64,000 nt of DNA. Origin: a virus. Positions within the stretch are counted from its first letter, which is position 1. Each line of letters opens with the position of its first letter. The position numbers were made by a program, and so were the translations under genes. The notes below the pieces were generated by a model. That model had not been told where the DNA came from. It did not search any database and was given only the letters and a program-made list of their open reading frames with translations. The stretch covers positions 1 through 64,000 of the IMG/VR virus record IMGVR_UViG_3300017917_001903; one strand, written 5' to 3'. Positions 1-60,584 of this stretch are shown in pieces.

Positions 1-309
1 AACCCTACAAACAAGCCGCATAAGAACAATGCACAAAGGCTCGTTTATGTCTAGTCAACAAAACACAAAGTTGTTCTTAATTGAAAGGACTAGAGCACAC
101 AAGCAATAAGAGTTTCGAGCTCTTTGCTGTACGGAGTATGTATAAAACATACAGGTGTGTTGGTTCTCGTCTCTCTCCCAACTCCGGGCAGTTTACTATT
201 TCTAGCACTCTGCCAAAACTTATTAAGAGAATACACTAGCCTGGACCACGCATCGTAGGTATCGGTCATCCCCCTACAGCTAATCACTAATGTATTCACT
301 TAATAAGTC

Positions 310-1165
310 ATCTAACCAAGCCTGAGATTACAGCTTCGAGCGAGTGTCTTTGACTTGTACCCTGTCCCTTGCGAGGAAGGTTGAGCCGTTATCCACTAAG
401 GTCCTTGCGGATCACCTAGTAACACTCAGTGCTGCCTTTTTTGGAGAGTGGCGTTTCTCTCGTCGTATGTTGCTATTCGTCCATCTATCTTCCGCCAGCC
501 TTGCGAGCTGTTCGACTGCGCTAACAGTCTACGTCTTCTATCCGAACAATCACTTCTGCCTTGCGAGCTTCTGTGAACCCAATTCACTTGCGTGTCAGGT
601 ATTAAGCACCTTTCACAACATACCGGAGCAGTCTTTCGCTTTTTGTTACAAACTGGGAATTGAACCCAGATCGACTGTTTAAGAGACAGTTGCATTACCA
701 TTATGCAATTTGCGAACCTACCAAGATGTGCTGCTCCAGTTGCTCCATACCTTGTTAGATACAGAATACAACACACCTCATGCCTTTCCCCTTGCGAGGT
801 ACTAAACGGTTTTTCAAGTCTCCCCTCATCGGTTCAACTATCAAACTAGTACTCGGCCCTTCTGCGCGAACAGTCGAACCCTGTACCTACCTGTTGATCA
901 TCAACATTCACAAGTTTGGTATGTTATAGCTTGGCCACCACAGCCTCTTGGAACTCACCGACTGGCTCTGTTCCTATCCTTTCGGACTATAACACCTGCT
1001 TACTGTCTATCGCCAACCATTACAGTGACGAAGGTTGCTTTCGGATTACTCCGAGTCAACCCTGACCCAGGCTTGCATAAATGGACTCTTGCGAGCGCAG
1101 GTGCGTAGGCTTTCCTGCTTTAGCTACATTGCTGTAGTTACCCTAAGGACGTTATGCCGCCCAAT
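310..1165 (-). ncRNA. GOLLD-like giant structured RNA (~850 nt)
   Basis: No credible ORF; five CTCGCAAG and other GNRA-capped hairpins on the minus strand; own promoter; adjacent to phage tRNAs; size and context fit GOLLD. Ends approximate. Confidence 0.75.
646..715 (-). ncRNA. tRNA-Lys(CTT)-like domain embedded in the giant RNA, no CCA
   Basis: D arm GCAT/ATGC, anticodon arm ACTGT-CTCTTAA-ACAGT, T arm CTGGG-TTCAATT-CCCAG, imperfect acceptor stem. Confidence 0.75.
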
Positions 1166-1171
1166 TTTTAC

Positions 1172-1200
1172 TTTTCAAAGAACGTTGCTAATTTCTTAGC
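1172..1200 (-). promoter_or_regulatory. boxB-like hairpin plus boxA-like antitermination sequence
   Basis: GCTAA-GAAA-TTAGC hairpin followed by AACGTTCTTTGAAAA just after the predicted start site. Confidence 0.6.
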
Positions 1201-1210
1201 TTATGTTATC

Positions 1211-1238
1211 ATTATACACGAATTAAAATGTTTGTCAA
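1211..1238 (-). promoter_or_regulatory. sigma70 promoter of the giant RNA
   Basis: TTGACA-N16-TATAAT. Confidence 0.85.
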
Positions 1239-1272
1239 CTACTTTTTTAATTTTTTTCTACTCTTCATAATA

Positions 1273-1533
1273 TTAATTAAGTTGTCGATTTCTTTTTTGT
1301 TCTACGCTGTCTAAGTCTTCAATCATCTCTAGGTCACGTAAAATAGACTCACGTAAGTCATCGGGGAGATCATCAAAGTCTTCTTCAGTCATTTCCCTTG
1401 AATTTTCAAACAATGACCCGTCTCCGATCATGCCCTGAATCTGCTTTACTAGACTATCAAGCTCTTCCTGGCTACCGTCAAAATTATCAAAGCAGCCTGG
1501 CTGGAATACAATCTTAATTTCTCTGTCGGTCAT
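1273..1533 (-). CDS. acidic hypothetical protein
   Basis: 86-aa ORF between tRNA and promoter. Confidence 0.75.
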   Translation of the reverse strand: MTDREIKIVFQPGCFDNFDGSQEELDSLVKQIQGMIGDGSLFENSREMTEEDFDDLPDDLRESILRDLEMIEDLDSVEQKRNRQLN

Positions 1534-1549
1534 TATTGTCTCTTATGTG

Positions 1550-1626
1550 TGGTGCCCCAGCACGGATTCGAACCGCGGACCTACCGCTTACAAGGCGGTT
1601 GCTCTGGCCAACTGAGCTACTAGGGC
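1550..1626 (-). tRNA. tRNA-Thr(TGT)
   Basis: cloverleaf, encoded CCA. Confidence 0.95.
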
Positions 1627-1637
1627 AAAATTAAATC

Positions 1638-1712
1638 TGGCTCCCCAGGATGGGTTCGAACCACCGACCAGACGATTAACAGTCGTCTGCTCTACCACTG
1701 AGCTACTGGGGA
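1638..1712 (-). tRNA. tRNA-Asn(GTT)
   Basis: cloverleaf, encoded CCA. Confidence 0.95.
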
Positions 1713-1722
1713 ATATTTTTTT

Positions 1723-1750
1723 ATTATACACTAAACAGCTAGTGTGTCAA
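1723..1750 (-). promoter_or_regulatory. sigma70 promoter for tRNA-Asn/Thr
   Basis: TTGACA-N16-TATAAT. Confidence 0.8.
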
Positions 1751-1757
1751 CCTATTA

Positions 1758-3053
1758 TTATTGGCGTGTTGTTTTTATACCGTCTGCTGTAGGGACTGTA
1801 TCAACAACGTCAATGTCTATAACTATGCTTTTTTGTCTTACGTAGTCTGCAAGTGTTGCATAATCTTTAGACGTGATATTTATAAGCGGATTATCTCCGT
1901 TGTCAAAATTAATGAAATAGTTTAAAATGCCTGTGTCTGTTTCTAACATGGTCTTGAAATGACCTGTTAACATTTTTATACCATCTACTCGAATCCAGTT
2001 AGTGTCTAATAGTCGACCAACGTAACGTATTTGATTGTCATGCAAATCAACAATATCACCGGAAGGAAACTGTACACCATTTGGGCGCTCAATTAAAAGC
2101 AAACCACTAGTGGAATTAACACTGTAGCGATAATGATGGTTTATGATATTAAAACGTTTATCGGTTTCTGACAAGTTGTTTATGTACCTAACTGCTAACG
2201 GTGGGCTAGCTTCAGTTAGACCGTAAATGTCAACTACTGTTTGAGCACCACCATCAAACAAATGCTCTAGCAACTTTGGTTTTAAATAATCGCCGCCAGT
2301 TGTAACATACCGTAGTTTGGTACACTTGGGCATTTTATGTGTGTCAACCATAGTGTAAAAAAATTGCGAGTGTGTTGCTTTAAGCATTTCACTTTCCCAA
2401 TTGTCGTGGTTAGCAAAACTTAAAACACTTGCACCAAACACAGCCGGTAATATGGCAGTAGAGTGAACCCCCACGTGACTCATACCATGTGAGAACACAC
2501 AATAGTCATCGGGCCGAATATATTCATCAATAGCAATGCGAATGCTTAGTGCATCGTATCCAACTGAAGTTTTAATTAATCTTGGTTTGCCAGTTGTGCC
2601 GCTGGAAAAACTATATTTGTAGTTATGTTCTCGGAAGGTAATATCTAAGCTATGCGGAACAGCGTATTTTGTTGCAGGATGTTGATCTGCCAATACGATT
2701 CTGTTACTGCCTCGAAAGTCTTCTTCGGGAATTTTGATATCATAACCAACAACAAAAACCTTACCAAAGCCACCAAAGTTAGTTTCAGCTGACTTTACAT
2801 AATCAATAATCGGTAGGTAAGGATCAATCTTAACGTAATCCTTTCCGTAATCGATCAGCGCCAACAGTACAGCAACAGACGAAAAGCTAGTTGATCCTCC
2901 AGCATATACTATGCCAAATGGGTATCCATTATCGTTGTCTGCAATAAACTGTTTCCAATAACCTACTGCCGCCGCTAACTGCTCACGAGTATATTCGCCA
3001 GCTGGGTCTCGGATAATTAAATTTTTACTTACTTTTAGAACTATATCTTCCAC
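1758..3053 (-). CDS. AMP-binding (acyl-CoA synthetase/ANL family) protein
   Basis: SSGTTGKPR P-loop, YGLTE and SGD motifs. Confidence 0.8.
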   Translation of the reverse strand: MEDIVLKVSKNLIIRDPAGEYTREQLAAAVGYWKQFIADNDNGYPFGIVYAGGSTSFSSVAVLLALIDYGKDYVKIDPYLPIIDYVKSAETNFGGFGKVFVVGYDIKIPEEDFRGSNRIVLADQHPATKYAVPHSLDITFREHNYKYSFSSGTTGKPRLIKTSVGYDALSIRIAIDEYIRPDDYCVFSHGMSHVGVHSTAILPAVFGASVLSFANHDNWESEMLKATHSQFFYTMVDTHKMPKCTKLRYVTTGGDYLKPKLLEHLFDGGAQTVVDIYGLTEASPPLAVRYINNLSETDKRFNIINHHYRYSVNSTSGLLLIERPNGVQFPSGDIVDLHDNQIRYVGRLLDTNWIRVDGIKMLTGHFKTMLETDTGILNYFINFDNGDNPLINITSKDYATLADYVRQKSIVIDIDVVDTVPTADGIKTTRQ

Positions 3054-3240
3054 GTGACGCTAACCTTGCTAATGCTATTGTTTTTCTATATGAGTACGAA
3101 GTAAACACATTGGGAAAAACTGCATGCATGAGGCTAGCAATACCAGCTTTAATAAGCACTATGCCGGCGCCAGCAGCAAATTTAAAATGCTGTCTATAGG
3201 AAGTTTGTTTTTCTTTGATGTGTTTGAACATAGCAAACAC
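3025..3240 (-). CDS. small conserved protein (DUF6356-like)
   Basis: SYRQHFKFA...HAVFP pattern. Confidence 0.6.
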   Translation of the reverse strand: MFAMFKHIKEKQTSYRQHFKFAAGAGIVLIKAGIASLMHAVFPNVFTSYSYRKTIALARLASRGRYSSKSK

Positions 3241-3256
3241 TATTTATATTCAGAGA

Positions 3257-3330
3257 TGGCTGGCCCTCAAGGATTCGAACCTCGGCTGCCGGAATCAAAA
3301 TCCGGTGTCCTACCACTAGACGAAGGGCCA
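3257..3330 (-). tRNA. tRNA-Gln(TTG)
   Basis: cloverleaf, encoded CCA. Confidence 0.95.
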
Positions 3331-3335
3331 ATAAA

Positions 3336-3695
3336 TTATTTTGCTAAACTATGCTTGACGGGTTTACCGTCTTCATCGAGACACACAAAAACCATTTCGT
3401 CAATTTCAACTATGATGTTTTGTGTGGTTAAGTCTCGTACTTTTACTTCAATTGTTATGCTGGTGTTGCCAACTTTCTTAAGGGCTATACCAATTTCAAC
3501 AATATCACCTTGGCGTGCTGGTGCAACAAACTCAATTGCAGAAATGCTTTTTGTTACTACTTTTTTATGGCGTGCTTCGATGGCTGCATATATAACAGCT
3601 TCTTCATCTACCCACTGTAATAGCCTACCGCCAAATAGTGTGTTGTTAGCATTTAGGTCTTCGGGCTTTACTAATTTTCTCGTTAAAAACCGCAT
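3336..3695 (-). CDS. acyl-CoA thioesterase (hotdog fold, YciA-like)
   Basis: DLNANNTLFGGRLLQWVDE motif. Confidence 0.85.
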   Translation of the reverse strand: MRFLTRKLVKPEDLNANNTLFGGRLLQWVDEEAVIYAAIEARHKKVVTKSISAIEFVAPARQGDIVEIGIALKKVGNTSITIEVKVRDLTTQNIIVEIDEMVFVCLDEDGKPVKHSLAK

Positions 3696-3720
3696 GCATT
3701 ATGTTACCTCTTATTGTGTA

Positions 3721-3797
3721 TGGCGACCCGTAGGGGACTTGAACCCCTGGCCTCATGCGTGACAGGCATGCGATCTAACCAACTGATCTAACGGGCC
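3721..3797 (-). tRNA. tRNA-Asp(GTC)
   Basis: cloverleaf, encoded CCA. Confidence 0.95.
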
Positions 3798-3802
3798 ATG
3801 AA

Positions 3803-4016
3803 ACTTGTTAGGTGTGCTGCTACTAGTCCCCACTGGCCCAGCACTGAGTTGTTACCCTGTCCACAAGTGCATTTCTAGGTCGGCACTTGAACGCCCGCGC
3901 AATGTTATCGAGTCACCCATGTTAAGCGGGTCTCTGCGGCAGATTGCTTCGCCGGTATCTTTATGGCATGATACGTCTGCCCACTTTCGTTACGCCCAAA
4001 GTGTAATGCGGGGTTC
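3803..4016 (-). ncRNA. unassigned structured RNA between tRNA-Ser and tRNA-Asp
   Basis: GC-rich, several hairpins (CAAGTGC/GCACTTG, GTGCTG/CAGCAC, GGCAGA/TCTGCC), no credible ORF. Confidence 0.5.
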
Positions 4017-4109
4017 TGGCGGTGAGGGTGGGATTCGAACCCACGGTACGCCTATTAAGCGTACGACGGTTTAGCAAACCGCTCCTTTCGGCCTCTCAGG
4101 CACCTCACC
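4017..4109 (-). tRNA. tRNA-Ser(GCT)
   Basis: cloverleaf with long variable arm, CCA. Confidence 0.95.
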
Positions 4110-4739
4110 AACTAACTCATCTACAAACTGCAATAATAATTTATGATGTGCGGCATAATGCCAACTCTTTTTTAGATATTTTTTATTATACCAAAACTCT
4201 TCGCTTTCAGGATGACATCCTATTAGACCTATGTTACCTTGTATGATTGCCATTGGGTCGCTGTTAGCATAACTAGCAATAGTTTTATAACTACCAGAAC
4301 CAACAAATGTACAACCATCGTAAAAATACATAGGCATATATTGACCTTGCCAATTAACATTAGCTACAGTTGGGAAGCTTCTGCGTACATCGGCATTAGT
4401 TTGTTTAATATACTGCACTACTTGTATATTGTCAAGTATATCAAAATACCAATGCCCGGACCAATAGGCTCCCATGCATATGCCAAGATACTTTCCACCG
4501 CTGGTTACATAGTCTGCTATTTTATTTGATAACCTACGTGTAAAAAAATTATGGAAAGAATCGCTGTCGCCAATGCCGCCCGGAAACGCAACCGCGTCAA
4601 ACACTGCGAGATCCAAGTTAGTTAAATCTAACTCATTAAACGATATCAGTTGATATTTAGAAGATAATGCTGTAGTCATGCCCGATATACACTCTTTAGA
4701 GCATTCGGGGTGTCTTAAAAATACAGCGATCTTCTTCAT
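4071..4739 (-). CDS. class I glutamine amidotransferase-like (BPL_N-type) protein
   Basis: FPGGIGD, YLGICMGAY, GCHPE motifs; start moved to MKKIAVF. Confidence 0.8.
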   Translation of the reverse strand: MKKIAVFLRHPECSKECISGMTTALSSKYQLISFNELDLTNLDLAVFDAVAFPGGIGDSDSFHNFFTRRLSNKIADYVTSGGKYLGICMGAYWSGHWYFDILDNIQVVQYIKQTNADVRRSFPTVANVNWQGQYMPMYFYDGCTFVGSGSYKTIASYANSDPMAIIQGNIGLIGCHPESEEFWYNKKYLKKSWHYAAHHKLLLQFVDELVGEVPERPKGAVC

Positions 4740-4758
4740 TATGTACCAGCTGACAAAT

Positions 4759-4833
4759 TGGCATACCCTCAAGGATTCGAACCTCGACCAGCGGTTTTGG
4801 AGACCGTTATGCTGCCGTTAACACCAAGGGTAC
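4759..4833 (-). tRNA. tRNA-Trp(CCA)
   Basis: cloverleaf, encoded CCA. Confidence 0.9.
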
Positions 4834-4837
4834 AAAC

Positions 4838-4912
4838 TGGTGCGGGATGAGAGGGTCGAACTCCCGACATTCGCCGTGTAAAGGCGCTACTCTACCACTG
4901 AGTTAATCCCGC
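4838..4912 (-). tRNA. tRNA-Val(TAC)
   Basis: cloverleaf, encoded CCA. Confidence 0.95.
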
Positions 4913-4955
4913 ATAATATTACTTATGCTTAAACTTTCTATGTGCCATTAATGAA

Positions 4956-5033
4956 TGGCCGGCCCTGAGAGACTCGAACTCCCGACCTTACGGTTCGTAG
5001 CCGTATGCTCTAATCCAACTGAGCTAAGGGCCG
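4956..5033 (-). tRNA. tRNA-Arg(ACG)
   Basis: cloverleaf, encoded CCA. Confidence 0.95.
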
Positions 5034-5034
5034 C

Positions 5035-5111
5035 TGGGGTGAAGGACGGGACTCGAACCCGCGACAACCGGTACCACAAACCGGGGCTCTACCAACTGAG
5101 CTACCGACACC
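5035..5111 (-). tRNA. tRNA-His(GTG) with G-1:C73
   Basis: cloverleaf; two acceptor-stem mismatches. Confidence 0.9.
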
Positions 5112-5117
5112 ATAATT

Positions 5118-5193
5118 TGGTAGCAACGGGCAGATTCGAACTGCCGACAGGCGGCGTATGAGACCGCTGCTCTACCAACTGAGCTACGTTGCT
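5118..5193 (-). tRNA. tRNA-Met(CAT), probably elongator
   Basis: cloverleaf, paired 1:72. Confidence 0.85.
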
Positions 5194-5608
5194 AAATTTT
5201 TGCTTTACTAACTAAATCTTTGTAACCTCGCCAGCTAGGATGAATCTTATCTGGCTGTACATATGGTGTGCTAATAACATCATCGTTATATAGTGTAGCC
5301 ATATGTTCGACTACTGCATTTACTTTAGGCTTACAAAATCCTTTGTTGCATGGAGGCATAATCCAAACCACACGCATTGACTTAATACGATAACGAATCT
5401 TGTATAATTCCTTAAAAGTATTAACGCCAGGATGATCATTTGTGCCAAGACTAATAACAACAGTCTTAGCTTCTAGCGGAGTCTTGCCCCACTTACGATT
5501 CCATTGCCAAGTATTATATCCACCTTTGGAATATGACACACATTCCTTAGGGGCAAACATCTTAGTACCAACGGCGATTGAATCGCCCATAATCAAACAT
5601 TCTAACAT
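5192..5608 (-). CDS. SGNH/GDSL hydrolase-like protein
   Basis: GDSI, LGTND, DKIHP blocks. Confidence 0.8.
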   Translation of the reverse strand: MLECLIMGDSIAVGTKMFAPKECVSYSKGGYNTWQWNRKWGKTPLEAKTVVISLGTNDHPGVNTFKELYKIRYRIKSMRVVWIMPPCNKGFCKPKVNAVVEHMATLYNDDVISTPYVQPDKIHPSWRGYKDLVSKAKI

Positions 5609-5626
5609 ACTGCTCTCTTTCTAACC

Positions 5627-5701
5627 TGGTGCTCCCGGAAGGATTCGAACCTCCAACCTAACCGTTATGAGCGGTCAGCTCTACCATTGAGCTACAAGAG
5701 C
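5627..5701 (-). tRNA. tRNA(CAT), Ile2 or Met
   Basis: cloverleaf, CTCATAA loop. Confidence 0.85.
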
Positions 5702-5721
5702 TAACCAGGTAACTGGCGTTC

Positions 5722-5834
5722 TGGCGTTCCTTGTGGACTTGCACCACTGTACACCAAGGACAGGTTTGCAGAGCAGGTCATTAGCCTGTTACAGTGACCA
5801 GAGAGATCCTTGTGCCACCCTTTATGGAGGAACA
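5722..5834 (-). ncRNA. tRNA-like RNA with expanded anticodon domain
   Basis: acceptor GTTCCT/AGGAAC-GCCA, T-like arm GTGG-TGCAAGT-CCAC, D-like hairpin, large domain replacing the anticodon arm. Confidence 0.6.
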
Positions 5835-5840
5835 TAAACT

Positions 5841-5916
5841 TGGTGGACTGTGTAGGGATCGAACCTACGACTTACTGATTAAGAGTCAGCTACTCTACCT
5901 ACTGAGTTAACAGTCC
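5841..5916 (-). tRNA. tRNA-Lys(CTT)
   Basis: cloverleaf, encoded CCA. Confidence 0.95.
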
Positions 5917-5922
5917 TAAAAA

Positions 5923-5998
5923 TGGTGGACCCTCCGGGGCTCGAACCCGGGACCAATAGATTAAAAGTCTACTGCTCTACCTACTGAGCTAAAGGTCC
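5923..5998 (-). tRNA. tRNA-Lys(TTT)
   Basis: cloverleaf, encoded CCA. Confidence 0.95.
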
Positions 5999-6005
5999 GT
6001 TAACT

Positions 6006-14706: not shown

Positions 14707-14908
14707 TTTTTAAACCCCATTTAATTTTTAGCCAAATACGCTCATGAATATAATAGTCAATACTGAGTAAAATATGCAGTGCCGTTGCAAAGCCTGTGGC
14801 ACTACCAATATCACCAGTGAACATGTATGTCCATAAGATTGTGAACAGCCAAGCCGTAATTCTGTAGCTGATCATTCTAATTATAGTACGAGTATGTGTT
14901 TCTGTCAA
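14696..14908 (-). CDS. DUF2061-like small membrane protein
   Basis: ETHTRTI...SYRI...YYIHERIW. Confidence 0.7.
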   Translation of the reverse strand: MTETHTRTIIRMISYRITAWLFTILWTYMFTGDIGSATGFATALHILLSIDYYIHERIWLKIKWGLKNDH

Positions 14909-46951: not shown

Positions 46952-46979
46952 ATTATACAAGGTTTTTAATTTTTGTCAA
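46952..46979 (-). promoter_or_regulatory. sigma70 promoter for tRNA-Arg/Leu
   Basis: TTGACA-N16-TATAAT. Confidence 0.8.
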
Positions 46980-55899: not shown

Positions 55900-56057
55900 T
55901 GTGTTTCCTTCCTGCTAGTGTTTATATACACTATTTATGAAAAGAAACACCAAAAATAAGTACTCGGTTTATCTCCGTCCGGTCGACACGGACTTGATCC
56001 TACTCATTGCCATCGCTGTGCGACAAACCTTACACCGAAAGGTAGGGCGGCAAATTC

Positions 56058-56133
56058 TGGTGCCCTCACCATGATTCGAACACGGGACCTACTGATTACA
56101 AATCAGTTGCTCTACCAGCTGAGCTATAAGGGC
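56058..56133 (-). tRNA. tRNA-Thr(TGT), second copy
   Basis: cloverleaf, encoded CCA. Confidence 0.95.
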
Positions 56134-56760: not shown

Positions 56761-56824
56761 TTTTATTTTCCTTATTAAAAAGCAGAAGTATTAGTTTCTG
56801 CTAATATATTTATAGGGAAATTTT

Positions 56825-57000
56825 TACAAGTGCGATTTTTTCTGTTGCTAGGAAAAATCGCAAACCCCGGAGAATTACGCTGCTAGAGCGTAATCACCAT
56901 ATGCAAAGTCATTATCGTTTGCAGTTACTTTTTTTGGCACTTTGCCAGTCAATCAGTCTCGGCATTCCTATTCCGCGTCAATCGATCCTATTTCAGGCCC
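56825..57000 (-). ncRNA. ssrA: two-piece tmRNA, coding piece; tag ANDNDFAYGDYALAA (56875-56922)
   Basis: GGGCCTGAAATAGGATCGA 5' end; tag frame ending LAA-TAA. Confidence 0.9.
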
Positions 57001-57001
57001 A

Positions 57002-57202
57002 TCATAAAAAAACTGCTGCTAGCGCAAGAAAAATAGCAAATGCAAGTAATGCTCTACCCCAATACTCTTGGTCGCTTTCATTGGGAATACTGCGACCATA
57101 ATATTTGTCTACTATCTTGTGCCATTCTGCTAATTCCTTGTCCGAGAGTGTCCCAGGAAAGTGATAGCCTCTCCAATATAAACGATTCTCTTCCTCAGTC
57201 AT
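57002..57202 (-). CDS. 66-aa membrane-anchored protein in the tmRNA intervening segment
   Basis: AAGGA RBS, ATG, C-terminal hydrophobic helix; fills the spacer. Confidence 0.7.
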   Translation of the reverse strand: MTEEENRLYWRGYHFPGTLSDKELAEWHKIVDKYYGRSIPNESDQEYWGRALLAFAIFLALAAVFL

Positions 57203-57215
57203 AGCAATTTCCTTA

Positions 57216-57280
57216 TGGTGGACCTGCCCGGTACTGCCCCGGGGTCTTGCCGCTTTTATTGTCAGCTGTCAACAACTGAT
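57216..57280 (-). ncRNA. ssrA: two-piece tmRNA, acceptor piece
   Basis: CCCGG-GGCAGTA-CCGGG T arm, CAGGTCC-ACCA pairing with GGGCCTG (G3:U70); 5' end approximate. Confidence 0.9.
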
Positions 57281-57900
57281 GTATTATTTAGTATTGTAAT
57301 TACGTCCTCAGCAAATTTATAGTGTGCAAGTTTTCCAGGATGCTCATTGTCTAACGCTGGAGAAAAATTAAGTGATATATCATTCATAAACACTTTTTCT
57401 ATTTTAGCTGTAGACCAACTAAATTTAACTATCATTCTCTTAGAAACTAAAAAGTGTAAAACTTTAATACCACGTTTTTTAAAATGTAAATCAGCATACT
57501 CAATTCTAGTATAAAGGTCAACGTTGGCATCATAGTCATCATATAGTGTATAAAAATGTTTAGTCGCTGGATCATCTGAATCAGCAGGAATGAAACGTTT
57601 AAATTTATTGGTAATGTGTGCATCTGCAGATTGTACAATGCAGGATCGTTCAGGGTACGTCCAAAGTATAACCACAATGTCATCATCTTGAAAAGCAAAG
57701 TTTTGTATCTTAAAAAGTATCTCTTTATTACTTGCGCCCGGAAAACTTGTGTTTATACATTCTCTTTTAAGATGCTTTGCAACCATAGCTGGCCAAGCAA
57801 ACGAACTAGGTTTACTAAGAGGCTTTTTTGCAACATGATCCCAACAGTCTGGTAAGCCGTGACCATATGTTAGACTGCATCCAAAGGTAATTAATCTCAT
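57262..57900 (-). CDS. SGNH-like protein
   Basis: FGCSLT, PGASN, DNEHP. Confidence 0.75.
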   Translation of the reverse strand: MRLITFGCSLTYGHGLPDCWDHVAKKPLSKPSSFAWPAMVAKHLKRECINTSFPGASNKEILFKIQNFAFQDDDIVVILWTYPERSCIVQSADAHITNKFKRFIPADSDDPATKHFYTLYDDYDANVDLYTRIEYADLHFKKRGIKVLHFLVSKRMIVKFSWSTAKIEKVFMNDISLNFSPALDNEHPGKLAHYKFAEDVITILNNTSVVDS

Positions 57901-60549: not shown

Positions 60550-60584
60550 AATGCTATTATAGCAGATCTAGAACACATGTCAAC

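Follow-up and report, generated by a model that had tools for sequence, protein, structure and literature searches.

GOLLD RNAs were reportedly described by Weinberg et al. in 2009 and are said to be named partly for lake metagenomes; the GOLLD of a Mycobacterium tRNA array is said to have been treated by Morgado et al. in 2020 as well. Two family members have been characterized by cryo-EM, the env-38 GOLLD as a 14-mer (PDB 9MEE) and the S. agalactiae GOLLD as a 12-mer (PDB 9L0R) (PMC12990946). The RNA adopts a cage architecture with the linker pointing inward, and GOLLD linkers sometimes hold tRNAs (bioRxiv 10.1101/2024.12.08.627333; PMC12990946). A further report places the Mycobacterium gene inside a horizontally transferred array of ~32 tRNAs and judges its nested tRNA-like gene to be a pseudo-tRNA, whose own expression was not detected (PMC6582537). 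The locus studied here resembles the Mycobacterium one in that a GOLLD with a nested tRNA-like gene lies in a tRNA array, but the Mycobacterium gene is chromosomal and actinobacterial and its nested tRNA is of type Phe (PMC12990946). ROOL RNAs are also large, ornate phage RNAs found by tRNA islands and form RNA-only cages (bioRxiv 10.1101/2024.12.08.627333); however, they are unrelated in sequence and secondary structure, and a ROOL match is absent in the window, by which we mean the whole stretch of 64,000 nucleotides that was analysed.

The first 64 kb of an 86.9-kb IMG/VR record (completeness 25% by CheckV) make up the window, which carries a GOLLD RNA gene in single copy from position 319 to about 1204 on the minus strand; the phage is an uncultured jumbo phage from fresh water. 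The best explanation overall, to which we assign a probability of about 0.93, is a GOLLD gene with a two-domain build and a tRNA-like module in its linker, the RNA being presumably transcribed and presumably assembled into a cage. An earlier note, made from the sequence without database searches, had proposed a GOLLD-like RNA at 310-1165, had left its strand unstated and had suggested an Infernal search, with a strong hit at the 3' end supporting GOLLD. That search (Rfam 15) confirmed the family assignment: GOLLD (RF02032) matched the 3' half of the region at 319-779 on the minus strand, on which all features described here are read, with 194.2 bits against a gathering score of 150. The match covered model positions 1-416 of 416 with a posterior of 0.93, and its E value ranged from 3e-53 to 7e-55. 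With permissive filters and E up to 1, only GOLLD and the nested tRNA were matched in bases 1-1400. The conserved RNA begins at ~1163 with GGGCGGC and ends at 319, in near-exact agreement with the extent first proposed; this core is ~845 nt long, and the RNA is ~885 nt with its leader.

The gene has the standard two-domain GOLLD build, with a 5' domain at 1163-780, a linker and the Rfam-modelled 3' domain at 779-319. In the cmscan alignment, P1 of the 3' domain lies at about 779-722 and a long-range pseudoknot pairs about 624-615 with 474-465; the pseudoknot strands and nearly all helices of the 3' domain pair, few pairs being flagged as non-canonical. The domain includes several CGCAAG-capped hairpins and terminates in GCUGUAAUCUCAGGCU (334-319). 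The density of GNRA-capped hairpins that had been pointed out before stood up to counting: six with stems of at least 4 bp were present on the minus strand of 310-1205 and none on the plus strand, against a mean of 0.8 (sd 0.9, maximum 5) in 1000 shuffles. CGCAAG itself occurred seven times in these 896 nt, against 27 times in the remaining 62.7 kb (both strands).

The window gene thus shares with the GOLLD family its size (~850-890 nt), a full-length model match, the pseudoknot in the conserved 3' domain, a separate 5' domain, a variable linker able to hold a tRNA and a site in a phage tRNA island. A length above ~800 nt with a structured 5' domain upstream, by which a GOLLD is recognized, was found here too. 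No defining difference separates the clade of the window from the family, and the gene is a new member of an already known family, ordinary as a GOLLD gene. The peculiarities of the clade concern the linker element: a conserved degenerate acceptor end without CCA, cassette exchange and a fast-changing anticodon. Among cultured phages, the best matches came from roseobacter and rhizobial phages, all alphaproteobacterial (Phaeobacter phage MD18, DSS3_MAL1, Roseobacter phage DSS3P8, Sinorhizobium phage Phosso and Mesorhizobium phage Cp1R7A-A1), whose GOLLDs showed ~69-72% nucleotide identity to the window over the matched parts of the gene (blastn). In MD18 and DSS3_MAL1 the matched part was the 3' domain, and in DSS3P8, Phosso and Cp1R7A-A1 it was shorter; most of the 5' domain of the cultured-phage GOLLDs had no blastn-detectable similarity to the window. 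Except for Phosso, these phages are much smaller (131-150 kb). The GOLLD of MD18, which lies in a tRNA island, scored 169.6 bits and contains a nested tRNA-Arg(UCU)-like element.

As the Rfam model is limited to the conserved 3' half, the 5' half of GOLLD was tested separately. A pattern of two conserved GOLLD motifs identified 36 viral contigs. Of the 27 homologous loci scanned, 24 scored above the Rfam cut-off for GOLLD; three loci gave no GOLLD row, and the copy in L010 is cut at the locus end. Most homologous loci share the 5' half of the window at 66-97% identity (blastn), and full homologue genes measure 845-909 nt. The 5' domain (780-1163, minus strand), which lies outside the Rfam model, was aligned in 22 sequences, the window and 21 homologues from viral contigs in which it is conserved. 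The RNAalifold consensus of these 22 sequences comprises 22 helices with a total of 96 pairs, and compensatory changes occur in 76 of these pairs. Pairing was observed in 95.7% of cells, compared to 32-41% when partners were slid by 1-3 columns, and the observed values were reached by none of 500 shuffles. The single-sequence fold of the 5' half beat shuffles only mildly (z = -2.1), and support for the fold of the 5' domain therefore comes from covariation.

The TTGACA-N16-TATAAT promoter suggested ahead of the gene is present as an exact sigma-70-type match (12/12) at 1238-1211 on the minus strand, ~40 nt upstream of the start of the conserved RNA, and predicts a transcription start near 1204. 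Five perfect TTGACA-N16-17-TATAAT sites are present in the window (1211-1238, 1723-1750, 14880-14908, 46952-46979 and 60556-60583), all on the minus strand, where 0.07 were expected. Three of the five precede stable-RNA genes, namely GOLLD, tRNA-Asn/Thr and tRNA-Arg/Leu. While the window gene has its own consensus promoter, the GOLLD of many relatives directly follows a tRNA: a TTGACA/TAnnnT promoter-like site was seen upstream of GOLLD in ~10 of 22 homologues, the others coming directly after a tRNA. We infer that the host RNA polymerase transcribes GOLLD from a consensus sigma-70 promoter, as it does phage tRNA operons.

Between promoter and position 1163 lies a poorly conserved, variable leader of ~40 nt (1164-1204), which contains the GAAA-capped hairpin GCUAAGAAAUUAGC (1200-1187) and a boxA-like GUUCUUUGAAAA (1183-1172) with 9 of 12 matches to GCUCUUUAACAA. 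The boxA-like motif reached at least 9/12 in only five of the 22 leaders (the window, L030, L037, L014 and L019), that of L019, GCUCUUUGACAA, having 11/12 matches. BoxA antitermination as a general feature of GOLLD was rejected on this count, and the motif is at best lineage-specific. Protection of this long untranslated RNA from Rho by the boxA-like motif in the leader is plausible.

Immediately 3' of GOLLD, a long stable hairpin of 93 nt occupies 217-309 on the minus strand (MFE -38.9 kcal/mol, z = -4.8). Its base is AU-rich, and a UUUU (218-215) overlaps or succeeds it. We consider this hairpin, presumably part of the GOLLD transcript, to be a candidate 3'-end, terminator or processing element. 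A consensus scan of bases 1-2000 found no intrinsic terminator after GOLLD, and a terminator role for the hairpin would be a guess. A hairpin with an outer stem of the same family follows GOLLD in most homologues with a readable 3' flank, and L043 has a classic intrinsic terminator at the corresponding spot; the probable end of transcription is therefore shortly past the GOLLD gene. Compensatory changes were seen in the outer stem relative to L032 and to Escherichia phage SU10, the pairs being GAAUACA/UGUAUUC in the window and GAGUACA/UGUACUC in SU10. L032 and L037 retain the outer stem of the window hairpin with a different interior, and a related outer stem, GAUGAAyACA...UGUrUUCUUC, was seen after GOLLD in many homologues. 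In its interior, the window hairpin shows ~77% identity to an intergenic region, without annotation, of E. coli Kuravirus phages (SU10, where the counterpart is L039 2501-2590, and nine others). The 3' hairpin looks like one of a family with exchangeable cargo, for which termination, RNase III cleavage or mobility as an element are conceivable roles.

The sequence also turned up in runs from fresh water, ponds and rivers (14 studies, six of them RNA libraries), and three RNA runs and one DNA run were aligned to bases 1-6000. RNA-library contigs from three metatranscriptome studies covered 341-1121, 466-1121 and 364-1152, although contigs do not reveal transcript ends, strand or level. One of them, of 783 nt (341-1121), spans both domains and the module. 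Two RNA-library contigs stop at 1121, and the DNA-run contig extends to 1341. RNA contigs were absent from 1201-1400, which may reflect strains differing from the window; they were also absent from the bins at 1801-3200, but the DNA control run barely covers these bins either. Contig depth (up to 3673 in X17) is unusable as an expression level. Taken as such, the RNA-library contigs weakly suggest expression of the gene and a single RNA comprising both halves.

The linker contains a tRNA-Lys(CUU)-like module at 645-715 on the minus strand, called by ARAGORN and scoring 56.8 bits with the Rfam tRNA model. Its cloverleaf is intact, with a C-A mismatch at acceptor pair 2-71 and a G-U at 3-70, and it encodes no CCA, the next bases being AAAAAG; CCA is encoded in 31 of the 31 free tRNAs of the window. 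In 21 homologues, the D, anticodon and T arms of the module were 98-100% paired with compensatory changes, and the acceptor stem was only 66.7% paired, pair 2-71 being unpaired in 20 of 21, 3-70 in 11 and 1-72 in 8. In the modules of L030, L037 and L056, Infernal aligned no more than model positions 4-67. The canonical tRNA features present are the D, anticodon and T arms, the D/T-loop elbow and a 7-nt loop with U33 and a purine at position 37; those lacking are the 7-bp acceptor stem and the 3' CCA. From these data, the L-shape of a tRNA and a canonical anticodon loop are retained in the module, whereas a proper acceptor end and CCA are missing. A natural variant, present in an RNA-library contig, has 10 differences, all within or beside the module, of which six make three compensatory pairs. 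Two further ideas were discarded: charging of the AlaRS type through G3-U70, as a G-U at 3-70 occurs in just six of 21 homologues, and pairing of the anticodon loop with an AAGAG in the 5' domain, as this motif stays constant in the alignment (inspected by eye) while the loop changes.

The module and the rest of the gene, its scaffold, differ in their patterns of similarity. The scaffolds of the window and L030 are nearly alike (identity of 96% in the 5' domain, 98% in the 3' domain), whereas the identity of their modules drops to 57%. L014 has a module identical to that of L030 on a scaffold with identities of just 65% (5' domain) and 83% (3' domain). Conversely, L018 and L024 show 86-88% identity to the window in the module, their scaffolds being 68% and 76-78% identical. 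A second scan, anchored on the conserved flanks of the module, raised the set to 48 modules. Among 34 complete scaffolds, scaffold and module identity correlated with r = 0.29; eight pairs had scaffolds at least 93% identical with modules below 75%, and eight pairs had modules at least 95% identical with scaffolds below 80%. Judging from these comparisons, the module behaves as a cassette exchanged between scaffolds.

Within the module, the anticodon loop is the part that diverges. In 47 pairs of distinct modules with a body divergence of at most 10%, pairs that are not phylogenetically independent, the anticodon loop differed by 0.356 per site compared to 0.062 for the module body (~6x faster), and the other loops of the same pairs differed by 0.059 (D), 0.073 (T) and 0.069 (variable) per site. 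U33 was nevertheless kept in 34 of 34 modules, and position 37 was a purine in 33 of 34. Two clusters of module bodies bear five loops each: CUU, UGA, AUG, UAG and UAU in one, and UGAU, UGA, UUU, UUC and UCU in the other. L030 and L037 differ at three of eight loop positions despite 98-100% identical loci. Anticodons found across the clade are CUU, UCU, UAG, UAU, UGA, UUC and UUU. Abnormal loops, of 8 nt or otherwise (for example AUUGAUAA and CUUAUGAA), occurred in seven of the 48 modules, from several lineages (L030, L014, L035, L036, L010, L017 and L059). The nested anticodon arm agrees with that of a free phage tRNA at 14 of 17 positions in the window and, with identical stems, at 15 of 17 in L044. 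The fast loop changes could partly come from gene conversion by neighbouring tRNA genes and not from selection. We found no description of cassette exchange or anticodon variability in the GOLLD literature consulted on nested tRNAs.

By analogy with the cryo-EM structures of the env-38 and S. agalactiae GOLLDs, some twelve or more copies of the window RNA would self-assemble into a closed, protein-free cage, with the 5' domains as caps, the 3' domains as rings and the linker modules directed into the lumen. The rapidly changing anticodon, with U33 and purine-37 kept, hints that the anticodon may be displayed inside the cage. Such a cage would display or sequester 12-14 tethered anticodon arms, the module staying tethered and not being freed as a decoding tRNA; anticodon nucleases, anticodon-loop modification enzymes, synthetase anticodon-binding domains or the ribosome of the host might be its targets. 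Display or sequestration of anticodon arms towards host factors that read anticodon loops is our leading guess at the mechanism, speculative and held at well below even odds. A narrower version, which we hold to be doubtful, is an "anticodon display cassette": an unchargeable tRNA body inside the cage, exchanged by recombination and with its triplet under diversifying selection, that would act as a multivalent decoy or trap for host nucleases or anticodon readers. Recombination at the conserved flanks (GGUAGGUUCGCAAAU ... AAAAGCGA) would move the cassette from one phage lineage to another, and the decoy would be aimed at anticodon-directed host defence nucleases or other anticodon-reading factors. 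Our literature search found no paper linking GOLLD to anticodon nucleases or decoys.

Alternatively, the module could be a structural spacer or an RNase P processing handle (compare MALAT1 mascRNA), with a loop free of constraint. The anticodon loop is indeed the most variable region and the outer acceptor is degenerate, both as expected for a spacer. In addition, a nested tRNA call was absent in at least five of the GOLLDs scanned (L004, L009, L012, L015 and L021), and the module is therefore dispensable for the fold. However, a loop free of constraint would not be expected to retain tRNA architecture, as the invariant U33 (34/34) and the nearly invariant purine-37 (33/34) indicate, nor to change at 0.36 per site when the D, T and variable loops of the same pairs change at 0.06-0.07. 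The three loop differences between the otherwise 98-100% identical L030 and L037, and the resemblance of the nested anticodon arms to genuine tRNAs of the phage (14/17 in the window, 15/17 in L044), point in the same direction, and we judge the spacer or handle unlikely.

Another possibility is that the nested element is a real tRNA-Lys(CUU) and GOLLD its precursor or "inhibited storage" form. RNase P and RNase Z would then release the module, CCA would be added and AAG would be decoded. This idea has been published (PMC12990946). The cloverleaf is a good one at 56.8 bits, the loop is a canonical 7-nt loop with U33 and A37, the stems covary, and the anticodons of the clade read A/U-rich codons of the kind often supplied by phage tRNAs. 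Many bacteria can mature a pre-tRNA that lacks CCA, using RNase Z and the CCA-adding enzyme, and release of a working tRNA is conceivable for that reason. Against this, the CCA carried by every free tRNA of the window is not encoded in the module, and the acceptor pairs 2-71, 3-70 and 1-72 are unpaired in 20, 11 and 8 of the 21 homologues. The product would also be superfluous: a normal tRNA-Lys(CUU) gene is present at 5841-5916, and the nested anticodon duplicates that of a free tRNA in 8 of the 11 informative loci, those with at least 12 free tRNAs and a 3-nt nested anticodon. Moreover, near-identical bodies with a short variable arm bear UGA ("Ser") or UAG ("Leu") anticodons. SerRS and LeuRS require a long variable arm, and these modules are therefore not substrates of either enzyme. 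The loop is 8 nt long or otherwise abnormal in seven of 48 modules, one RNA contig crosses the module unbroken, and in Mycobacterium expression of the nested pseudo-tRNA went undetected (PMC6582537). With this evidence, storage of a working tRNA appears rather improbable.

The remaining two readings concern the region as a whole, and both have a negligible probability. A protein-coding region could be invoked from two open frames of more than 110 aa, the longest in the region (116 aa at 426-776, minus strand, and 112 aa at 344-682, plus strand), but the former contains 2-8 in-frame stops or a frameshift in 14 of 14 homologues, including those 92-96% identical, the opposite-strand frames of homologues range from 48 to 254 aa with no fixed position, substitutions are compensatory for base pairing and not codon-like, and Rfam assigns the stretch to GOLLD; ORF 426-776 was accordingly ruled out, in line with the first impression that the region holds no credible ORF. 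Another large structured RNA class is suggested by the size and the phage tRNA-island setting, which resemble those of ROOL, yet the models of ROOL, group I/II introns and RNase P, of which an intron or RNase P match had been named beforehand as evidence against GOLLD, gave zero matches in bases 1-1400 at E up to 1, compared to E = 7e-55 for GOLLD, and these identities were likewise ruled out.

The anticodon display cassette, acting as a decoy or trap, would, if true, give GOLLD its first concrete function. The value of the present set is that ~50 close relatives inform a family whose function stayed open for 15 years. The sole part that changes fast and hops between lineages is the anticodon of an apparently non-chargeable tRNA look-alike, located in the linker that the structures place inside the cage, and the question of what the cage is for becomes testable at the bench through the anticodon of the module. 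The finding also bears on annotation. The records of MD18 and Cp1R7A-A1 leave the GOLLD unannotated and label the nested element alone, as tRNA-Arg and tRNA-Leu, respectively (the latter in MT188704.1, the match record), and each annotated "tRNA" is part of an unannotated GOLLD gene. If these elements share the degenerate acceptor and missing CCA, which are established as a pattern of the clade and not for MD18 or Cp1R7A-A1 individually, they should not be counted as decoding tRNAs. The GOLLD region of MD18 is MT270409.1 22146-22822, equivalent to L001 3001-3677; a "hypothetical protein" CDS on the opposite strand (L001 3492-3677) abuts the 3' end of GOLLD at 3484.

The phage association and the tRNA neighbourhood that had been expected of a GOLLD were both found, the record being viral and a tRNA island adjoining the gene. 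ARAGORN detected 32-33 tRNA genes in the window (31 free-standing ones plus the nested module) together with a permuted tmRNA; every one of these genes reads on the minus strand, and the main tRNA island has GOLLD at its downstream end. Next to GOLLD, tRNAs are interspersed with small ORFs and with genes for an AMP-binding (adenylate-forming) enzyme (1758-3053, minus strand) and a 4HBT thioesterase (3336-3695, minus strand), the two enzymes being unusual cargo for a tRNA island. The DNA ligase of the phage is at most 36% identical to any cultured-phage sequence, and the phage is without a close cultured relative. Five complete relatives, with genomes of 283-382 kb, carry exactly one GOLLD each.

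Several other RNA elements were observed in these islands. The permuted (two-piece) tmRNA of the window is located at 56784-57308 on the minus strand, and others were seen at L001 3695-4110 and L032 11219-11698. The permuted tmRNA lies ~200 nt downstream of GOLLD in Phaeobacter phage MD18 and ~1.9 kb away in L032, GOLLD and tmRNA recurring together within such tRNA islands. A COG2908 RNA motif at 56008-56052 on the minus strand (70.3 bits against an Rfam cut-off of 58.7) is directly downstream of tRNA-Thr (56058-56133), with no COG2908/LpxH-type gene nearby among the genes inspected. Finally, the tRNA island of a related phage contains a manA RNA motif (L038 5770-5941; 59.3 bits against a cut-off of 55.2).
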